59,916 bases of DNA from a virus, in the UHGV virus genome UHGV-0126570. One strand, 5' to 3'. The position numbers and the translations under genes are program-made. The notes under the pieces are model-generated. The model saw nothing but the letters and a program-made list of their open reading frames with translations, was not told the DNA's origin and searched no databases. Shown piece by piece: positions 10,314 to 57,335 of this stretch (its first letter is position 1; each line of letters starts with the position of its first letter).

Positions 10314-10726
10314 CCTGTGTGTCTACAAAACATCCCAATGATCGGAAAATGTTCGCTCGATGATTTGTATTAGAAAATTAATTTGCTGTTTCTAAATCGG
10401 AATGTATGATCTGCATCATCGACTGAAGTCATCCATTGCTGAAATTTTTAGTTGATCTTCCATGTTTTCAGGCTTATATTCATGCCGTCGTAGCAAATTC
10501 TGCGACCAGGTTTGACAGCCTGAATGTTAGTGCGGACAACCGCAGATTTCCGATATTGCGGTATTTTTGTGTCCGTAAACCGCGTTACGCCCGAATTATG
10601 GTGGGGCGTGATGGGGAGGCTTCGGCCTGCTGGTTTCACTAACGCCAGTCTGTCAACCCTGTCACGTCCTGCCACCTGTTTGACAGCGGGTAGCAGGTTG
10701 TTAAACCTGTTAGTGAGGCCGTAACT

Positions 10727-21353: not shown

Positions 21354-22562
21354 ATGAGTCAACAAACTGATACTTCTAATCTGGAAATCATCTCAGCCGC
21401 GATTGAAACGCTGCGGACACAGATCGCCCTTATTCAAAAGCGGAATCCGGGGGATGACCTGTCCAGACGGCTACATGAGAGCGTCATTGCCACTACTGAT
21501 AACCTGGTCGCGGAGATCAACCAGCTACTTGAGGAAGGGACGGTTGATTACAACAAGCTGGTGGATCAGTTTGAGGAATATCAACAAGCCGTTAATGATG
21601 GCTTGATCCGTTTTTCACAAGTCACAGGCGTATCAGCGACAGTTGAAAGTCTTGGCAATGCTGTTAATCAATTTGCCGCGAATATGCGTAGTGAGATCGG
21701 CAATCTGGAAGCGCGTCTTGAACAGGCAAACACACTGCGCAAATCCGCAGAAGCCGATTTGAGTCGTTACAAAAAAGACTATCCAGCCAGTCTGTCAAAA
21801 CGACTGGATGTTGCGGAGAAGGATAACCGTGCGCTGAAAAGAGAGCGTCGGGAACTAAAAGAGCGTTTAACAGAGCTGAATCAGCAATGCATTAAGTATC
21901 AAGGCGAAGGCGTCACACTGCGTAAAAAGTTAGCAGCAGCGCAGAACATTATTGAAACGCTGAAACGAGAGTGCTCACAGCTTGGTCATGATCTGAACCG
22001 CGCTTGTGGTATGGGACAAAGGCCAGAGACATTCCCGCTCATGTATGACGGGGTGGATGCTATTGCCTATATCCATGAGTACCCGCATGGTCTGGTTGCG
22101 GAGACTGGTCAGCGTGGTGAAGCTCTGTTGACGGCTAATTACCATCAACAAATTAGAACCAACCGCCTGCTGACGATGGATGTGATCCCATCAGTATGGG
22201 GAACGCCGCTTTACTATCGCCTGCCCGGCTTCGAAACGGACTGGAATACCGATATAGACGAATGCCTGGCAGATAAAATTATGGCGTACCTGGAGACTGA
22301 TTTCCCGCGCCTGCATCGCCGGATTATGGACTCTAAGGATGCGCCGATCGATGAATTGAAAATGCGCCCAGAGACGTTGGAAGCTATCAAACAGACTGCG
22401 TTTGATACCGTATTCAGCGTGGCCTGTATCCCAAGTAGTTTTCATGAAAGCATCCCCTTTATGCAGGGCGACCGTCGTCAAGAAATTATTGATGCCTGCC
22501 GGGTGTGGGCTAACGAATGGGACAAGAAGAATGGGGGCGTAGAAGATCTTTATGGGAAATAA
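21354..22562 (+). CDS. Hypothetical protein: N-terminal coiled coil plus C-terminal globular domain
   Basis: ORF track starts at 21270; the ATG at 21354 (MSQQTD...) lies downstream of the terminator and motif and has GGGA upstream. Confidence 0.5.
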   Translation: MSQQTDTSNLEIISAAIETLRTQIALIQKRNPGDDLSRRLHESVIATTDNLVAEINQLLEEGTVDYNKLVDQFEEYQQAVNDGLIRFSQVTGVSATVESLGNAVNQFAANMRSEIGNLEARLEQANTLRKSAEADLSRYKKDYPASLSKRLDVAEKDNRALKRERRELKERLTELNQQCIKYQGEGVTLRKKLAAAQNIIETLKRECSQLGHDLNRACGMGQRPETFPLMYDGVDAIAYIHEYPHGLVAETGQRGEALLTANYHQQIRTNRLLTMDVIPSVWGTPLYYRLPGFETDWNTDIDECLADKIMAYLETDFPRLHRRIMDSKDAPIDELKMRPETLEAIKQTAFDTVFSVACIPSSFHESIPFMQGDRRQEIIDACRVWANEWDKKNGGVEDLYGK

Positions 22563-23220
22563 TATGTTAGAAATCTAATTTCATCAAACGAACATATTGA
22601 TTGTGAGAGTAACTTAACTTAGAATTTTCCTTGCTGGTGGAGCGTTGCCACATTTCGCTTGCTGGGCTTGATAGTCACTTATTGGTTGTTGTTCGCCCAC
22701 CAGCAAATAACAAATTAAAGTGTTAGAAAATTACATGCATACAGGGACTCGCTTTGGCACCGAGCAAGCCAAAGTTCAGCAGGTTTAGTGCGTAAAGTGG
22801 TTTCAGAGAGAGCACTTTACGGAGTAAACAACAAGACATGTTGAGCCACGGAAGGTCTTTTTAAGATGTTCATTGATGATGGTCCGGCAGAGAGTAACGG
22901 GACTCGCCGCATCGAATCATCATCAATGCACATCCTCAACATTAAGGAGGCATAGGGATTTTTTTGTGGCGATTACCTTTTGCCCTAAGTCTCCTTAATG
23001 TTGCGGTAATGCACCTATGCGGATGCGGCCTTGCATTGTGTCTTGAAAGAATGGGGTAAGGCCGGGGATATCCCCAGGGGGAGGCACCCCCGCTGCAACG
23101 AACAGCCACAGACGGCAGTCGAGTGATGGAAACGTGCAAAGACTTTAAACCTCGTTACGGCTGGCGTGGCAAACGCGACAACCGAGACAGAGCGGTGACG
23201 GGCGGAGAGAGTGCCGCATC

Positions 23221-23341
23221 AAGAAAGAAGCCGACTTGTGATCCCTTTCTGCGGGCATTTGAAAGTGAATCCAGCTCAGGCAGTCGGCTTCTTTCTTGTG
23301 TGAGATGTAGCGTATTTGCCCATCTTCGGGTGGGCTTTTTT
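23221..23341 (+). ncRNA. Candidate small structured RNA (16-bp stem-loop plus intrinsic terminator)
   Basis: AAGAAAGAAGCCGACT (23221-23236) pairs with AGTCGGCTTCTTTCTT (23282-23297); then GCCCATCTTCGGGTGGGC followed by TTTTTT (23318-23341). The overlapping 85-codon ORF (23123-23380) runs through both hairpins and is probably not coding. Confidence 0.3.
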
Positions 23342-23801
23342 AGGGTTTTCGTCATGGTTAGCGACTTTGCGGCGGTTTAGAACCCGACCATTAAAGTAAA
23401 TGCAAACGATGATCTGATGATGGTAGCGGCCTAAGAAGCCTGACGCCACGGGGTATGAGTCGTCCCCCGTCAAAAAATCGACCGCAGAGTGTCCCCGTCT
23501 GTGTATTAGGGAACGGGGAGGCATAACAGGCAAGGGCGCTGGTGTGATTAACCAGATGAATGAGAAGGGTCAGGTCTTTCTGGTCAGCGCCCTTACCTGT
23601 TACGTCCCTCCCGCGTAACAGCCATTGATTAATGGCTTTCTGGGATAACATCCTACTACGGGTATATCCCGTCATGCTGAAGGCGCTAATCACGCTGGAA
23701 GCCAGGGTTGTGCATCCCCTGTTACCGAATTGCAGCCAGGGCGCGGTGCGCCGAAAAGCATACGGAGGTGGAAGCCCTCGCCGGAGACGTAACCGGCAAG
23801 T

Positions 23802-23878
23802 GATGGTGTAGCTCAGTAGGATAGAGCAGCAGCCTTCTAAGCTGTCGGTCGGTGGTTCGAATCCACCCACCATCGCCA
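23802..23878 (+). tRNA. tRNA-Arg (anticodon UCU; decodes rare AGA)
   Basis: Manual cloverleaf: acceptor GATGGTG/CACCATC, D-arm GCTC-AGTAGGATA-GAGC, anticodon stem GCAGC/GCTGT with loop CTTCTAA, T-arm GGTGG-TTCGAAT-CCACC, encoded CCA. Confidence 0.8.
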
Positions 23879-23880
23879 AT

Positions 23881-23956
23881 GCCGGTTTAGCTCAGTTGGT
23901 AGAGCGCCTGCCTTGTAAGCAGGATGTCAGCGGTTCGAGTCCGTTAACCGGCACCA
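23881..23956 (+). tRNA. tRNA-Thr (anticodon UGU)
   Basis: Acceptor GCCGGTT/AACCGGC, D-arm GCTC-AGTTGGTA-GAGC, anticodon stem CCTGC/GCAGG with loop CTTGTAA, T-loop TTCGAGT, encoded CCA. Confidence 0.8.
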
Positions 23957-23964
23957 ACACAACA

Positions 23965-24039
23965 GGTAAGGGTATTTTGCGACGTCGGAGATCGCCGTGC
24001 TTGGCAGAGGGTTCGAATCCCTACGAAGTACCCTTACCG
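23965..24039 (+). ncRNA. Non-canonical tRNA-like element (acceptor-like stem plus T-loop, no canonical D/anticodon arms)
   Basis: GGTAAGG(G)...GGGTTCGAATCCC...CCCTTACC: a 7-8 bp terminal helix and a perfect T-loop consensus, but the interior cannot be folded into a cloverleaf. Either a tRNA pseudogene or an RNase P-type processed regulatory RNA. Confidence 0.3.
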
Positions 24040-24421
24040 TTGTGATGAAGTGCAGCTCTTTGAAGCAACCAGAAGATAAGCATCTGGCTTCACAACATAA
24101 ACCGCAGGAACGACCAATAAACGGTAGTCCGTATGGAGAATACCCCGTTGAGGAAGAGGCCTGGCCGGAACCGTAACCGGCACTACAACGTTGAGAACAC
24201 TGACGTAACGGGGTCATATCCCAATCTACGAATAAATGTTGCGTTGCAGCGTGACAACCAGTGTTCTCAACGTTGTGGTGGATTCGCAGACTGATGCGAT
24301 AGCTTTCTTGGATGTTAGGGAAATGCGGCCGCAAACCTTCCCTTTCGCGAGCGGTGATCGTCCGTAGTCCTAATTGGCTGCACCGTATGCCGGAGATTCA
24401 GTACCGGCCACCACAACGGCC

Positions 24422-24508
24422 GGAGAGTAGGGAGCATGGTGCTCAAGCGGTCTTGAAAACCGTCCCATTGCGCAAGCGATGATGGTTCGATTCCATTACT
24501 CTCCGCCA
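24422..24508 (+). tRNA. Probable type II tRNA, tRNA-Ser (anticodon UGA)-like
   Basis: Acceptor GGAGAGT/ACTCTCC, anticodon arm GCGGT-CTTGAAA-ACCGT (close to E. coli serT), 17-nt variable region, T-arm GATGG-TTCGATT-CCATT, encoded CCA. D-arm and variable arm are atypical. Confidence 0.55.
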
Positions 24509-24775
24509 GCGCAACGTTAAGAGTATTTGGCTAATTAAGCGAATGCCGGAAGCAGAACCGGATCAACAAATGCGTACAGGCGTCATCGCCGCCCAGCCAG
24601 CCAAGTGCTCTTACCATTGCGGTGAATGCGGCTAAGCGCACGCGGAACAGTTAAAACAATCCTCCTTAGTGGTTAAGTCAAACATCCCGGCGTTAATTGT
24701 TAACTGGTTAACGTCACCTGGAGGCACCAGGCACCGCAACCTAATAAATACGTCATGTTTATTGAGGGATAACCA

Positions 24776-25210
24776 ATGTTCGGTAAATTTTTCGGTAAGA
24801 AAGTCGCTTCAGCAAAAGTAGAGCTGAAAAGGGTTGAGAATCGCGATCTGATGGAGGCCATTATCGGTGGCTGTTTGTTGGTGTCTGCCGCAGATGGTGA
24901 AATCGAAAAGGAAGAAACAGCGAAACTTGATCAGCTTGTCCGCTCTAATCCTCGCTTAAGTCATTTTGGCAACGAAATTACCGCAACAATCACCCGTTTT
25001 ACTGAGCAACTGGAAGCTGGTTTCCGTGTTGGTCGCATGAATATCCTTCGCGAAATTGAAGATATCAAAAATGATCCAAAAGAAGCGGAAGAAGTATTCG
25101 TTAACATGCTGACGATTGCAGAAGCGGACGGTGAAATCGAGCCAGCAGAACACAAAGTACTGGAAGAAGTAGGCCGTCGTTTGGGCCTTCGTGTGGAAGA
25201 TTATCTGTAA
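24776..25210 (+). CDS. TerB-like domain protein (tellurite-resistance TerB / TciA-like)
   Basis: 144 aa with the paired acidic helices typical of the TerB fold (...LLVSAADGEIEKEE...LTIAEADGEIEPAEHKVLEEV); GAGGG RBS. Adjacent to the tRNA-Ile2 gene, as tciA is adjacent to trnI in P1. Confidence 0.65.
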   Translation: MFGKFFGKKVASAKVELKRVENRDLMEAIIGGCLLVSAADGEIEKEETAKLDQLVRSNPRLSHFGNEITATITRFTEQLEAGFRVGRMNILREIEDIKNDPKEAEEVFVNMLTIAEADGEIEPAEHKVLEEVGRRLGLRVEDYL

Positions 25211-25374
25211 TGATTGGCAAGGCGCGTATTGCGTGCGCCATTGGTTTTCTCGTTTTGTCCGTGCTGGTGGATTTCACCAGCAAAGTGATGTCGGTGTTGG
25301 CTGATGGGGCACTGGTTTCAGTAGCTGTGGTATTGCTATTGCCGATTATTAAAGCTGCGTTCAGGAACTCATGA
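25210..25374 (+). CDS. Small membrane protein (54 aa), not in ORF track
   Basis: Start overlaps the upstream stop (TAATG); MIGKARIACAIGFLVLSVLVDF...VAVVLLLPII has two hydrophobic helices. Confidence 0.4.
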   Translation: MIGKARIACAIGFLVLSVLVDFTSKVMSVLADGALVSVAVVLLLPIIKAAFRNS

Positions 25375-25484
25375 TGGATTTTTGGACGTATATTGATAAG
25401 AACCCTGGATGGTCTTTGCTATTTCTTCTTGTGATCGTATACGGAGTAGAACAAGTAGCGAAGAATCTCAGGCGTCGAAAATAA
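25371..25484 (+). CDS. Small membrane protein (37 aa), not in ORF track
   Basis: ATGA overlap with the previous ORF; MMDFWTYIDKNPGWSLLFLLVIVYGV...RRRK has a single TM and basic tail. Confidence 0.35.
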   Translation: MMDFWTYIDKNPGWSLLFLLVIVYGVEQVAKNLRRRK

Positions 25485-25493
25485 AAACTAATT

Positions 25494-25569
25494 GGCCCCT
25501 TAGCTCAGTGGTTAGAGCTGGCGACTCATAATCGCACGGTCACCGGTTCAAGTCCGGTAGGGGCCACCA
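25494..25569 (+). tRNA. tRNA-Ile2 (anticodon CAU, lysidine-type; decodes rare AUA)
   Basis: GGCCCCTTAGCTCAGTGGTTAGAGC...CTCATAA...GGTTCAAGTCC...AGGGGCCACCA; acceptor and D-arm essentially identical to E. coli ileX. Cannot be formally distinguished from elongator Met by sequence alone. Confidence 0.75.
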
Positions 25570-26022
25570 TATTTGGTTGTAACACGGCGTATGGCACATG
25601 CGTCGTTAGCGGTCTGGTGACGTTATAGGGGTTACCTTTTCCCCTAGCTCAGGCAACAAACCAGGTAGCCGGAATGTGCAAGCCCCGTTCATATCGTCGG
25701 ACCGAGGACTCACCATCCTGGCGATTCGGTGTGACAGCCGGAAGAGTACGGCGCACAACAGGAAAAGGCGTTTAATTAACGTGAGCGCCGTTTCCGTTGT
25801 GGTAATTGCGGCTATGCGCTCGTGACGAAGCCATTTTCATTCACTACGTTCTGATAAGTGACGTCGCCAGGAGTGGCTAACCTGGCAGGTGGAGGCACCA
25901 CCGCCACAACTCCTTTCAATTCATCATATAGCCGCTCAGGCTGTAACCCTTAATTAATACGAAGTTTCGACATCTCTATCGGTTTAACCGAGGGATGGTC
26001 GCGCGTGTAAAAAGGAGACGTT

Positions 26023-26598
26023 ATGTTAACGGCGAACGATAACGCGTATGCAGAAGCAGATCTCATATTGAGTGACTTCATCGGTCAGCGGGAACGCTGG
26101 ACACAAAAGCGAGAGGAACTTTATGCCTCGTTAGTTCGCAAAGGTGTCAACATTGAAACCGCTCAAAGCGGCGATATGACGGTAGTCAGTGTTGGATTAC
26201 ATGGTGTGAGCGTGTCCGCAGCCAATCATGAGCCATACGTAGCGTTATCCGAGTCGATGGCAAGGCTAATTAAGTTTCTGAAGCAAACAGAAGCCAATAA
26301 TGTTTTCATCGCCAAAAAGAACATCAATTTTTCTGCCGCCATGTTCTGGATGATGAAGGGGCTGGATGCCCGCCGGGCATCATGGCCTAAAGGGAGCTAT
26401 TTATCGATGTTCCGTGGCAGCATTGGCAGCAAAGAAAAGCTCTTCGAATTCTTGCCGGAAGAGGCATTCGATATTGTGGAAGGGTGCGATGTGATGGTTA
26501 TGCCTCGCCTGGTAATGATGAATGGGGATTTACAGGCGCAGACAGACTGGTTCGCAACTGGCGTGGATATTATCGCAACTGACTGGGAGGCATTCTGA
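26023..26598 (+). CDS. Fusion protein with C-terminal DUF2829-like (Tad2-like) domain
   Basis: C-terminal AAMFWMMKGLDARRASWPKGSYLSMF ... MPRLVMMNGDLQAQTDWFATGVDIIATDWEAF follows the DUF2829 signature as recalled from memory; N-terminal ~100 aa unassigned. Confidence 0.4.
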   Translation: MLTANDNAYAEADLILSDFIGQRERWTQKREELYASLVRKGVNIETAQSGDMTVVSVGLHGVSVSAANHEPYVALSESMARLIKFLKQTEANNVFIAKKNINFSAAMFWMMKGLDARRASWPKGSYLSMFRGSIGSKEKLFEFLPEEAFDIVEGCDVMVMPRLVMMNGDLQAQTDWFATGVDIIATDWEAF

Positions 26599-47562: not shown

Positions 47563-47667
47563 AATACTGACTGTTGCGCCATGGCATTATCGTGGGGTAT
47601 ATTTCTACGGCACCTTAGAAAAACGGGTGCCGGGATTGGAACCCCGGATAATGTCAAAGGCGACACA

Positions 47668-47689
47668 GACGCCGAAAGCGTCTTTTTTT
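47668..47689 (+). terminator. Rho-independent terminator
   Basis: GACGC-cgaaa-GCGTC followed by TTTTTTT. Confidence 0.7.
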
Positions 47690-47874
47690 GTGTCATGCCA
47701 TCGCACAGCCATACGTAGCGTTTAGCTCAGAGATCAATGGTAGTGCTGGCTGGGCTGCCGAAAGGCAGGCCGGTTCCCTTTGACGCCGGTAGTTCCAACC
47801 CAGTCAGTGCTACCGCCATTGAGATTGGAACCTCACGCGGTAGCTCCTTAACTTAGTCAAAGGAGGCTGCCAAT

Positions 47875-56626: not shown

Positions 56627-57276
56627 AGCGTAGAGCGCAAATTGTTGGAACTGTGCACCCGGCAGGGCTTATGCGTGCTCAGGTCCGTGTTTTACCAGAC
56701 TGGAATGGCGTTCCTGATGACGATCTACCCTGGGCAGAATACCTGTTACCCATAGGTAACGCGTTTGTACCTACAGTAAAAGGCGACCTGGTATGGGTAG
56801 AGTTTCCTTATCTGGATGTTAATGGTCGAATTGATACCAGACGCCCAATGATAGTTGGCGCAGCTCAGGATGCGCCTGGCGGAGTACCAAACGTCGCGCC
56901 GGAGGCGTCAGGCAATGGTAGCGGCTGGACGCCACCAGAAGTAGACGGAGCGCCTCCCCGCCCGCAATTTTCGGCGACAAAAGATTTCGTGATTCACCGC
57001 AACAATGTGCTCGAAGTGCGAACGGCTGGCGGTGGATATGAAATAGCGAATACGGCAGCAGGCTCAAGGATTGGAATGAATGAATCAGGGCAGATATACA
57101 TCATTGGTCCGGCTGATGTAGTAGTGAATGCGGGAGGGAGTGTTAACGTCAAATCAGCCGATAACATCAGCGTTAATGGCAAAAACATTACTGTGACAGC
57201 CGACGAAAATATTGATTTCAAGGCTGGAGGCACCTTCCAGGCTATCGCAAGCAACTTTGATTTCAAGAAGGGATAG
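56623..57276 (+). CDS. Baseplate spike / gpV-like protein
   Basis: N-terminal OB-fold-like segment (IVGTVHPAGLMRAQVRVLPDWNGVP...GDLVWVEFPYLDVNGRIDTRRPMIVG) followed by a Gly/Asn-rich beta-helix-like repeat. Confidence 0.45.
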   Translation: MKRRAQIVGTVHPAGLMRAQVRVLPDWNGVPDDDLPWAEYLLPIGNAFVPTVKGDLVWVEFPYLDVNGRIDTRRPMIVGAAQDAPGGVPNVAPEASGNGSGWTPPEVDGAPPRPQFSATKDFVIHRNNVLEVRTAGGGYEIANTAAGSRIGMNESGQIYIIGPADVVVNAGGSVNVKSADNISVNGKNITVTADENIDFKAGGTFQAIASNFDFKKG

Positions 57277-57285
57277 AAAACACAT

Positions 57286-57329
57286 CCAATTGTGTTAGAT
57301 AATTGAATAGAATTTTCTAACACAATTGG
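57286..57329. promoter_or_regulatory. Extended palindromic operator-like element CCAATTGTGTTAGA-N16-TCTAACACAATTGG
   Basis: Near-perfect 14-bp inverted arms, 7 bp upstream of the rdgC start codon. Confidence 0.55.
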
Positions 57330-57335
57330 TGAAAC

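Follow-up and report, generated by a model that had tools for sequence, protein, structure and literature searches.

Three short hairpins that share the loop AGGCA lie within 2.8 kb of one another in the virus genome UHGV-0126570, and they raise the question of whether such elements are chance similarities, free-standing signals, or parts of a larger RNA. We analyzed the whole 59,916-nucleotide (nt) stretch of this genome (hereafter, the window; positions count from its first letter). A sequence-only reading had described three small hairpins with compensatory stem changes, an invariant loop, and an invariant 3' tail, and had proposed that they might be processing sites, protein-binding hairpins, or attenuators. 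Rereading the sequence located all three, GGGGG-AGGCA-CCCCC at 23077-23091, CCTGG-AGGCA-CCAGG at 24717-24731, and GGTGG-AGGCA-CCACC at 25888-25902, each on the + strand. We are highly confident that they are the terminal arm, P6, of three paralogous RNA domains of 100 to 123 nt (modules 1 to 3), encoded on the + strand and homologous to the core of the small RNA (sRNA) family STnc100/PasD.

The hairpins are not a random occurrence. The exact 9-mer GGAGGCACC was found four times in the window, whereas 0.39 ± 0.60 occurrences were expected from dinucleotide-preserving shuffles and none of 100 shuffles reached four. Among the 110 AGGCA pentamers on both strands of the window, just the three reported copies had a flanking stem of at least 4 bp; all three stems are exactly 5 bp long and Watson-Crick throughout. 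The fourth GGAGGCACC, at 57226, lies in an apparent coding stretch and is without complementary flanks. For three of four GGAGGCACC sites to carry three extra complementary flanking pairs, we obtained a P value of ~1.5e-5. The AGGCA loop and the inner two pairs are the same in the three copies, while the outer three pairs vary with complementarity kept. Allowing one mismatch in GGAGGCACC removed the enrichment (10 found versus 10.3 expected), and the relaxed motif was rejected; the exact 9-mer together with its flanking stems is alone informative.

Aligning the ~120 to 140 nt that end at each hairpin brought out a second conserved block, GTTGYGGTRAWTGCRSCTAWGCG, ~100 nt upstream. The conserved 5' box located there (GTTGYGGTRAWTGC, of the form GTTGYGGT) pairs with the 3' tail as a closing helix, P1. 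The tail had been called invariant but is only loosely so (GCTGCAAC, CACCGCAAC, and GCCACAAC in the three copies), and it constitutes the 3' strand of P1. When folded separately, the three segments gave one layout: an 8-bp P1, 3 to 4 unpaired nt (AAU or AAUU), a P2 hairpin with a conserved CUAWGCG loop region, internal hairpins, and P6 last. The segment after P2 pairs with the loop of the P5 hairpin to form a pseudoknot, and is followed by a variable insert, P5, one unpaired A, and P6. P6 directly abuts the 3' strand of P1, which allows the two helices to stack as a single continuous one. The middles of the modules are unalignable among the three copies, yet the helices are common to all. Thus, what had been taken for a small free-standing hairpin with a tail is in each case one arm of a multihelix module.

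Module 1 spans 23000-23099, with P1 formed by GTTGCGGT (23000-23007) and GCTGCAAC (23092-23099), P2 at 23011-23026, P5 as GGGG..CCCC at 23064-23075 (alternatively 23053-58/23069-75), and P6 at its terminal position; its fold has a free energy of -48.1 kcal/mol (z = -2.9). Its GGCCTTG at 23027-23033 pairs with AAGGCC(G) at 23057-23064, as a nested helix or as a pseudoknot (complementarity CGGCCTTG/TAAGGCCG). Module 2 (24617-24739) is the nearest to the family consensus and consists of P1 (TTGCGGTG, 24617-24624, with 24732-24739), P2 (24628-24643), P5 (24689-24696/24708-24715), the unpaired A at 24716, and P6, with a pseudoknot between CAGTTAA at 24648-24654 and TTAACTG at 24700-24706 in the P5 loop. 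Module 3 (25796-25910) is divergent and comprises P1 (GTTGTGGT, 25796-25803, with 25903-25910), P2 (25808-25819), P5 (25866-25871/25881-25886), the unpaired A at 25887, and P6; its pseudoknot joins AGCCA at 25829-25833 to TGGCT at 25874-25878.

To which family these modules belong was indicated by a permissive Rfam scan, in which the one notable non-tRNA match was STnc100 (RF02076), at 24618-24738 with 39.4 bits over model positions 31 to 147 (E = 2.4e-6 in the 3.5-kb search and 1.7e-7 for the alignment over these positions). STnc100 is a prophage sRNA of unknown function that is among the most frequently annotated sRNAs (PMC9029176), one copy of which lies 75 nt 3' of stx2B (PMC12370729). Common ancestry of STnc100 and PasD has been proposed, PasD being reported as structurally homologous (bioRxiv 10.64898/2026.05.13.724894). 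The full 206-nt model of canonical STnc100 is made up of an A/U-rich leader, the core module, a ~25-nt linker, and an intrinsic terminator, and canonical members occur in tandem arrays adjoining tRNA genes. The STnc100 consensus itself carries CCGGG-AGGCA-CCCGG (CCGGGAGGCACCCGG) followed by CACCAug beside the closing helix. The core (positions 31 to 147, with P1, P2, P5, and P6 abutting the 3' strand of P1) is present in the window, as seen in the module 2 alignment, in the folds, and in full-length matches to an independent covariance model. A literature search with sequence strings for other names of the module returned nothing relevant.

The covariance model (R1) was built without the window sequences. 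A search of IMG/VR viral loci for GGTGAAT-N65-95-GGAGGCACC, a pattern in which neither P1 nor the outer pairs of P6 are specified, yielded more than 120 loci, from which 87 unique true members were kept and 36 representatives were aligned. Across the whole window and both strands, R1 gave exactly three full-length matches, at 24611-24741 (71.3 bits, E = 5e-17; module 2), 22995-23100 (33.7 bits, E = 4e-7; module 1), and 25791-25911 (27.3 bits, E = 2e-5; module 3). The next match scored 11 bits, and the result was unchanged with filters off. Whole-module alignment with MAFFT scrambled the variable middle, and from it RNAalifold recovered P1, P2, and P6 only. On these comparisons, we take the window modules to be three divergent, sub-threshold, leader-type, and unannotated copies of a known RNA family, so that an apparently new mini-motif resolves into members of that family and its "invariant tail" into a helix strand.

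We examined covariation in 123 hits, representing 94 distinct sequences. In P1, P2, and P6, 98.1% of the cells were paired and double changes occurred in 163 cells, and none of 500 shuffles reached any of these measures; helix registers that were slid fell to ~45% paired. P6 was paired in all 94 distinct sequences, with compensated double changes at three of its five pairs. G-U pairs were far more frequent in the helices than A-C (49 versus 6), which identifies the structure as RNA of the + strand. The stem covariation on which the sequence-only reading had staked its claim is therefore present across the family, and its inference of selection for secondary structure was correct. Family-wide, P6 is nevertheless better called nearly sequence-invariant. 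The stem CCGGG/CCCGG was found in 74 of 93 unique hits and CCTGG/CCAGG in 12; the latter, the variant of module 2, occurs in 12 to 13 unique external sequences as well as in the leader of dicB in Escherichia coli K-12. Single wobble variants occur, such as CCGGG/CTCGG in phage P7. The loop is invariant among the three window copies but not throughout the family, where changes are rare: AAGCA in the phage P1 orthologue and AGGCC in one relative. The single A before P6, the AAU, and the CU..GCG are conserved unpaired nt.

The stems of modules 1 (GGGGG/CCCCC) and 3 (GGTGG/CCACC) are the most divergent P6 stems in the family, and these two modules are limited to ~120 D6-like phage-plasmids. P6 of module 3 was recovered by the stem scan, the fold, the R1 match, and a Klebsiella homologue; in this homologue, 69% identical overall, P1 and P6 are unchanged and the pseudoknot is compensated from AGCCA/TGGCT to GGCCA/TGGCC. 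In a Salmonella homologue of module 1, a C is replaced by U and the pairing persists as a wobble.

Further support comes from the pseudoknot. Nearly all members have complementarity between the P5 loop and the segment that follows P2, and the partner sequences are diverse (for example, CCAGTC/GACTGG, CTGGTG/CACCGG, AAGGTTG/CAACCTT, and AGACTGACAAA/TTTGTCAGTCT). Because minimum free energy (MFE) folding often renders this pairing as a nested helix, an MFE-based parse was unreliable, and we replaced it with an anchored parse that has a swapped-partner control. With the same search procedure, duplexes of at least 7 bp were found for 71% of segments with their own partners and for 18% with swapped partners, and there were 43 distinct duplex sequences. 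This adds a covariation-supported pseudoknot to the STnc100 core; the Rfam structure line is without one, and none is described in the literature examined.

These data leave almost nothing for the view that the three copies are chance similarities, or DNA-level repeats from a recent duplication without structural selection. Its one attraction is that the three P1 helices are alike in sequence (GTTGYGG...CCRCAAC), as in recent paralogues. However, the excess of GGAGGCACC (4 versus 0.39) and its flanking complementarity, the unalignable middles that keep the same helices, and the family-wide covariation with its G-U over A-C asymmetry refute it. We also rejected the idea that the canonical 5' box (ATGGTGAAT...) holds a short ORF (open reading frame), since P1 covaries as RNA and the corresponding letters are GTGGTG or GCGGTG in many members.

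Could the hairpins still act on their own, as three autonomous 15-nt elements with a tail that serve as attenuators or as antitermination hairpins of the nut/boxB type? A 5-bp stem with a pentaloop is the size of lambda boxB, and a boxA-like octamer, TGCTCTTA, lies at 24606-24613, 3 nt before module 2, with TGCTCTTT in the same place in phage P1. However, all three hairpins belong to larger folds whose P1, P2, P5, and pseudoknot covary, so that module-level covariation largely refutes the autonomous reading, and the loop AGGCA (AAGCA in P1) is not GNRA-like. Attenuation or termination fares no better: in modules 1 and 2, neither P6 nor P1 is followed by a U-tract; T occurs at most once in the 10 nt beyond P6, and 0, 3, and 5 times in those beyond P1 of the three copies; and the hairpins were not among the terminator-like sites in a scan of the window. 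We thus regard free-standing action as very improbable. Candidate boxA elements were rejected as well. The octamer is limited to the terB leader of P1, P7, and D6, 10% of random 30-nt windows match as well, and, as the sole octamer resembling a conserved boxA (YGCTCTTWA), it is ~110 nt away from P6 on the 5' side. What recurs at its position in leader-type copies is the pyrimidine tract CTT(T/A)CC and not a proper boxA.

The family is deployed in two modes, which we compared by counting contexts among unique hits with enough flanking sequence. Members whose P2 is of the CCCCC..GGGGG kind (A-type) were followed by a terminator of their own at no more than 110 nt in 49 of 62 cases, and 17 had a promoter positioned at P1. 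Members with a GC-type P2 (B-type) had a promoter at P1 in no case and an ORF start within 80 nt in 18 of 32; the downstream ORFs were dicB (at 22 to 26 nt), terB/tciA (at 30 to 34 nt), and an ORF of 177 to 187 aa. At least 12 unique A-type sequences have TTGAMA-17/18-TAAATT with its end exactly 8 nt short of GGTGAAT, a spacing that places the start site at the first nt of P1. For the stand-alone subtype, we therefore infer that transcription starts at P1 and ends at the module's own terminator. All three window copies are of the B or "leader" subtype. Stand-alone STnc100 has an intrinsic terminator 17 to 60 nt after the module; the window copies have no terminator within 110 nt and no promoter at the P1 offset. 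Downstream of module 1 a terminator follows at ~220 nt, and modules 2 and 3 are followed by ORFs. The analysis thus establishes helices P1, P2, P5, and P6, the pseudoknot, the RNA strand, and two types of context, separating a promoter- and terminator-bearing sRNA subtype from an operon-embedded leader subtype.

Modules of the module 2 type were found in 4,673 of 5,426 complete E. coli genomes (~86%), with a median of two copies, and are unannotated. In a K-12-like chromosome (NZ_CM183444.1, ~1,649,483-1,649,623, in the Qin prophage), the module lies between DicF and dicB, 15 nt from the former and 25 nt from the ATG of the latter; it scored 68 bits with R1 and 34.5 bits with Rfam STnc100 and has a 14-bp P1. 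The DicF-dicB spacer of a well-studied toxic operon is thus occupied by an STnc100-core domain. The dicBF processing sites mapped to date are all upstream of DicF (bioRxiv 10.1101/2023.04.14.536235), so the dicBF literature is uninformative on this spacer.

What might the leader form do? It sits 22 to 35 nt, in some cases ~110 nt, upstream of toxic or defense-related genes (dicB, terB/tciA, and the Tad2-like gene). We tentatively suggest that the module sequesters the 5' end of the downstream RNA, limiting 5'-end-dependent decay and setting the output of the downstream cistron, although we would put this at somewhat less than an even chance. In this scheme, the module would be a compact domain that folds autonomously. 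The RNA that follows would be either an sRNA body, as a primary transcript from P1, or an mRNA segment freed from a polycistronic tRNA/sRNA precursor. With its 5' end buried, this RNA would be less exposed to 5'-end-dependent decay, and the level of terB, the Tad2-like gene, or, in K-12, dicB would be set accordingly. The near-invariant P6 would serve as a specific docking surface, for a tertiary contact or a host factor; the near-invariance of its 15 nt across the family argues for a specific partner. By extension, the pseudoknotted STnc100 core may be a portable cassette with such a partner, heading Hfq-dependent sRNAs or controlling prophage genes in cis, but this is a speculative proposal to which we attach a low probability. 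If it were true, the cassette would represent a new class of cis-regulatory RNA. A specific partner or control of downstream genes, if real, would bear on how prophages restrain toxic and anti-defense genes and would affect how thousands of enterobacterial genomes are annotated.

A closely related explanation is that the module is a binding platform, in which P6 and the P2 loop contact a protein (Hfq, ProQ, a CsrA-like protein, or an RNase adaptor) or a small ligand, making it a cis-regulator of the downstream cistron in the leader form and the scaffold of a trans-acting sRNA in the stand-alone form. The prevalence of the CCGGGAGGCACCCGG form of P6 (74 of 93 unique hits) would suit this, as would the conserved unpaired AAU, CU..GCG, and A before P6 and the unchanged P6 in divergent orthologues at 69% identity. 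Moreover, the two modes, with the module before a terminator or 22 to 35 nt before a start codon, resemble expression platforms. The stability of PasD is Hfq dependent on northern blots (PMC8550237), and tciA, which lies 3' of the phage P1 copy, is reported to be overinduced in a Δhfq host (bioRxiv 10.64898/2025.12.28.696737), which is a hint only. However, these Hfq data concern whole sRNAs, not the module. In stand-alone copies, no alternative pairing between the terminator and P1 is obvious, and the genes that the terminators face are convergent ones, not regulated ORFs. A CsrA-binding hairpin was rejected, as GGA is not exposed in the AGGCA loop: the loop lacks the CsrA-type GGA-in-loop, and the GGA of GGAGG takes its two Gs from the end of the stem and its A from the start of the loop. 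On balance, we consider a binding platform a serious rival, although a minority possibility.

The position of the modules among tRNA genes suggests another alternative, that they are processing signals. In this case the 12- to 14-bp P1/P6 stack would mimic the acceptor/T-arm minihelix of tRNA, and RNase P, RNase III (for copies with a long P1), or RNase E would cut a polycistronic tRNA/sRNA/mRNA precursor at the module boundaries. Modules and tRNA genes lie among one another here, as they do in many loci, and P6 abuts the 3' strand of P1 without a spacer, as a T-arm abuts its acceptor stem. The C4 RNA of P1 and P7 is matured by RNase P, which also counts for this explanation. Against it, neither ARAGORN nor the Rfam tRNA model called the modules, the P6 loop is a 5-nt loop and not a T-loop, and P1 is not followed by CCA. 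Transcription of stand-alone copies seems to begin at P1, so that they would have no 5' leader left to remove, and the mapped dicBF cleavage sites lie upstream of DicF, outside the module. We judge a processing signal to be unlikely, though less so than free-standing hairpins. That the modules are themselves tRNAs or tRNA-like elements was rejected, with only four genuine tRNAs called (ARAGORN and Rfam RF00005) and a P6 loop of 5 nt versus the 7-nt T-loop. With the hairpins placed within the module, the protein-binding hairpin and the processing site put forward in the sequence-only reading would both be possible functions.

Several points weigh against our own explanation, in which three STnc100-core modules act on the RNA that follows them. 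Module 2, at 39.4 bits, falls below the STnc100 gathering cutoff of 47 bits, and modules 1 and 3 had no Rfam match at E ≤ 5. The retrieval pattern fixed GGTGAAT and GGAGGCACC, so the invariance of the loop and inner stem is partly built in; second copies in the loci and BLAST-derived orthologues agree nonetheless. Start sites at P1 are deduced from promoter spacing only. The pseudoknot partner in module 1 lies 5' of the GGGG-ATAT-CCCC hairpin, so that a nested fold is equally possible in that copy. Moreover, simple 5' protection needs no 15-nt invariant arm or conserved loop nt, and something more specific is probably involved. Taking these points together, we consider our explanation the best overall and a probable one, a judgment that applies mainly to the identity and architecture of the modules.

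The genomic setting is that of a long phage leader. The region shares 97.5% identity with Escherichia phage D6 and 92% with parts of P7 and P1, from which we take the window to be a D6-like phage of the P1 family. The homologous DNA of P1 and P7 forms the long leader of the ban operon, which C1 controls, in the order promoter/operator, dicF-like region, tRNA genes, tciA/terB, tciB, tciC, tRNA-Ile, and ban. The modules lie in the counterpart of this leader, a tRNA-rich untranslated leader of ~3.4 kb. Positions 22563-26022 are almost wholly noncoding, with four tRNA genes, terB (PF05099), and a DUF3927/tciB gene, all on the + strand; downstream are a Tad2-like ORF (PF11195) and then lpa, also on the + strand. 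The neighbors that the sequence-only reading had assigned to the hairpins, a structured segment, a TerB gene, and a DUF2829-like gene, were correct.

Two adjacent tRNAs, Arg-UCU (ARAGORN; Asn in the D6 annotation) and Thr-UGU, lie at 23802-23956. A tRNA-Ser (UGA) at 24422-24508 is 109 nt upstream of module 2; it scored 46.6 bits on the Rfam tRNA-Sec model (cutoff, 47), and in the D6 record tRNAscan-SE assigned it no amino acid. A tRNA with a CAU anticodon (25494-25569; Met by ARAGORN, Ile2 in the P1/P7 annotation) lies between tciB and module 3. The terB/tciA homologue (24776-25210, +; Pfam TerB, E = 2e-14; also so annotated in D6, P7, and P1) holds module 2 in its 5' untranslated region, the module ending 36 nt 5' of the start codon. 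Within the variable insert of module 2, 24657-24668 contain AUCCUCCUUA, which is identical to the 3' end of 16S rRNA (the anti-Shine-Dalgarno sequence); P7 has the same sequence and P1 has UCUCCUUA. Its pairing partner could be a Shine-Dalgarno sequence or the GGAGG of P6. Module 3 lies 112 nt upstream of the ORF at 26023-26598 (+), which has a Tad2-like domain (Thoeris anti-defense 2, formerly DUF2829; PF11195, E = 1.5e-9). On a Shigella plasmid, a homologous ORF bears the annotation "MW1434 family type I TA system toxin."

Downstream of module 1, an intrinsic-terminator-like hairpin with a T-run occupies 23318-23343 on the + strand (hairpin, 23318-23335) and is possibly the 3' end of the RNA containing module 1. 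A perfect 17-bp hairpin (23220-23236/23282-23298) lies 5' of it, and module 1 and the 23220-23343 segment could form one long sRNA-like transcript. From the terminator to the first tRNA, the 456 noncoding nt at 23345-23800 fold at -176 kcal/mol (z = -4.2 versus mononucleotide shuffles); they include a 27-nt inverted repeat (23515-23541/23585-23611) starting GGGGAGGCA and have no Rfam match. Directly after tRNA-Thr, 23960-24040 resemble a degenerate tRNA, with a canonical T-arm GGGTTCGAATCCC and the acceptor-like GGTAAGGGTA...TACCCTTACC, and were not called by ARAGORN.

Two further segments, 24041-24192 and 24273-24418, have closing helices (GTTGTGATG...CACTACAAC and GTTGTGGTGG...CCACCACAAC) of the GTTGTGG...CCACAAC type, and in both the terminal arm is a GCCGG-N8/10-CCGGC hairpin that abuts the 3' strand. 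They may represent a second type of module. We rejected them as diverged members of the STnc100 family; with filters off, R1 gave at most 6.5 bits, which is noise, and the MFE z-scores were unremarkable. Hairpins of the form GCCGGA...CCGG also occur at 23781, 24165, 24391, 24547, 25670, and 25739. A 22-nt inverted repeat (24181-24202/24259-24280, 95% complementary) joins the 3' closing strand of the first segment to the 5' closing strand of the second and could form either a duplex of the RNase III type or an alternative fold.

Elsewhere in the window, two separate matches to C4 antisense RNA were found at 10474-10679 and 47610-47820 (68.8 and 77.1 bits), one accompanied by an a1/b1 target element (10474-10526) and the other by an adjoining isrK match (47610-47688), which suggests two immunity-type C4 loci. 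Repeats of the TGTTAGAAA type lie just after the pmgS-like gene (22560-22584 and 22716-22740), and a palindrome with TGTTAGATAATT...TTCTAACACAATTGG lies at ~57.3 kb (57290-57335); together these could be operators of a D6-type repressor.

Compared with known systems, the modules recall a lambda nut site: an early phage leader carries 15-nt hairpins, each a pentaloop on a 5-bp stem, and in one case a boxA-like octamer is close by. They differ in a loop that is not GNRA-like, in that the hairpin is an arm of a larger fold, and in that boxA is not conserved in the family. The likeness to the tRNA acceptor/T-arm minihelix lies in a 5-bp arm directly stacked on a 7- to 8-bp closing helix, among tRNA genes; however, the module has a 5-nt loop without T-loop residues, no D or anticodon arms, and no CCA.

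With STnc100, the window copies share the multihelix core, a 5-bp P6 with AGGCA (the CCGGGAGGCACCCGG-CACC of the consensus), and the association with prophages, phages, and tRNA genes. In contrast to STnc100, they have no A/U-rich 5' leader, promoter of their own, or adjacent intrinsic terminator, their P2 is of the GCGGCUAAGCGC type and not CCCCC..GGGGG, the outer P6 pairs of modules 1 and 3 are flipped (GG..CC), and they sit in leaders of mRNA/tRNA operons rather than as stand-alone genes. PasD1 and PasD2 of enteropathogenic E. coli are, by their published description, similar in their homology to STnc100 and are found in lambdoid prophages adjoining Q, lpxR, and esterase genes; they differ from the window copies in being validated stand-alone, Hfq-dependent sRNAs with RIL-seq targets. 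In the DicF-dicB spacer of K-12, dicB is downstream instead of terB, P1 is longer (14 bp), and the DicF terminator rather than a tRNA spacer precedes the module, but the spacer shares with module 2 the P6 CCTGG-AGGCA-CCAGG, the GCGGCUAAGCGC type of P2, the pseudoknot CAGTTAA/TTAACTG, and a position just 5' of a start codon.

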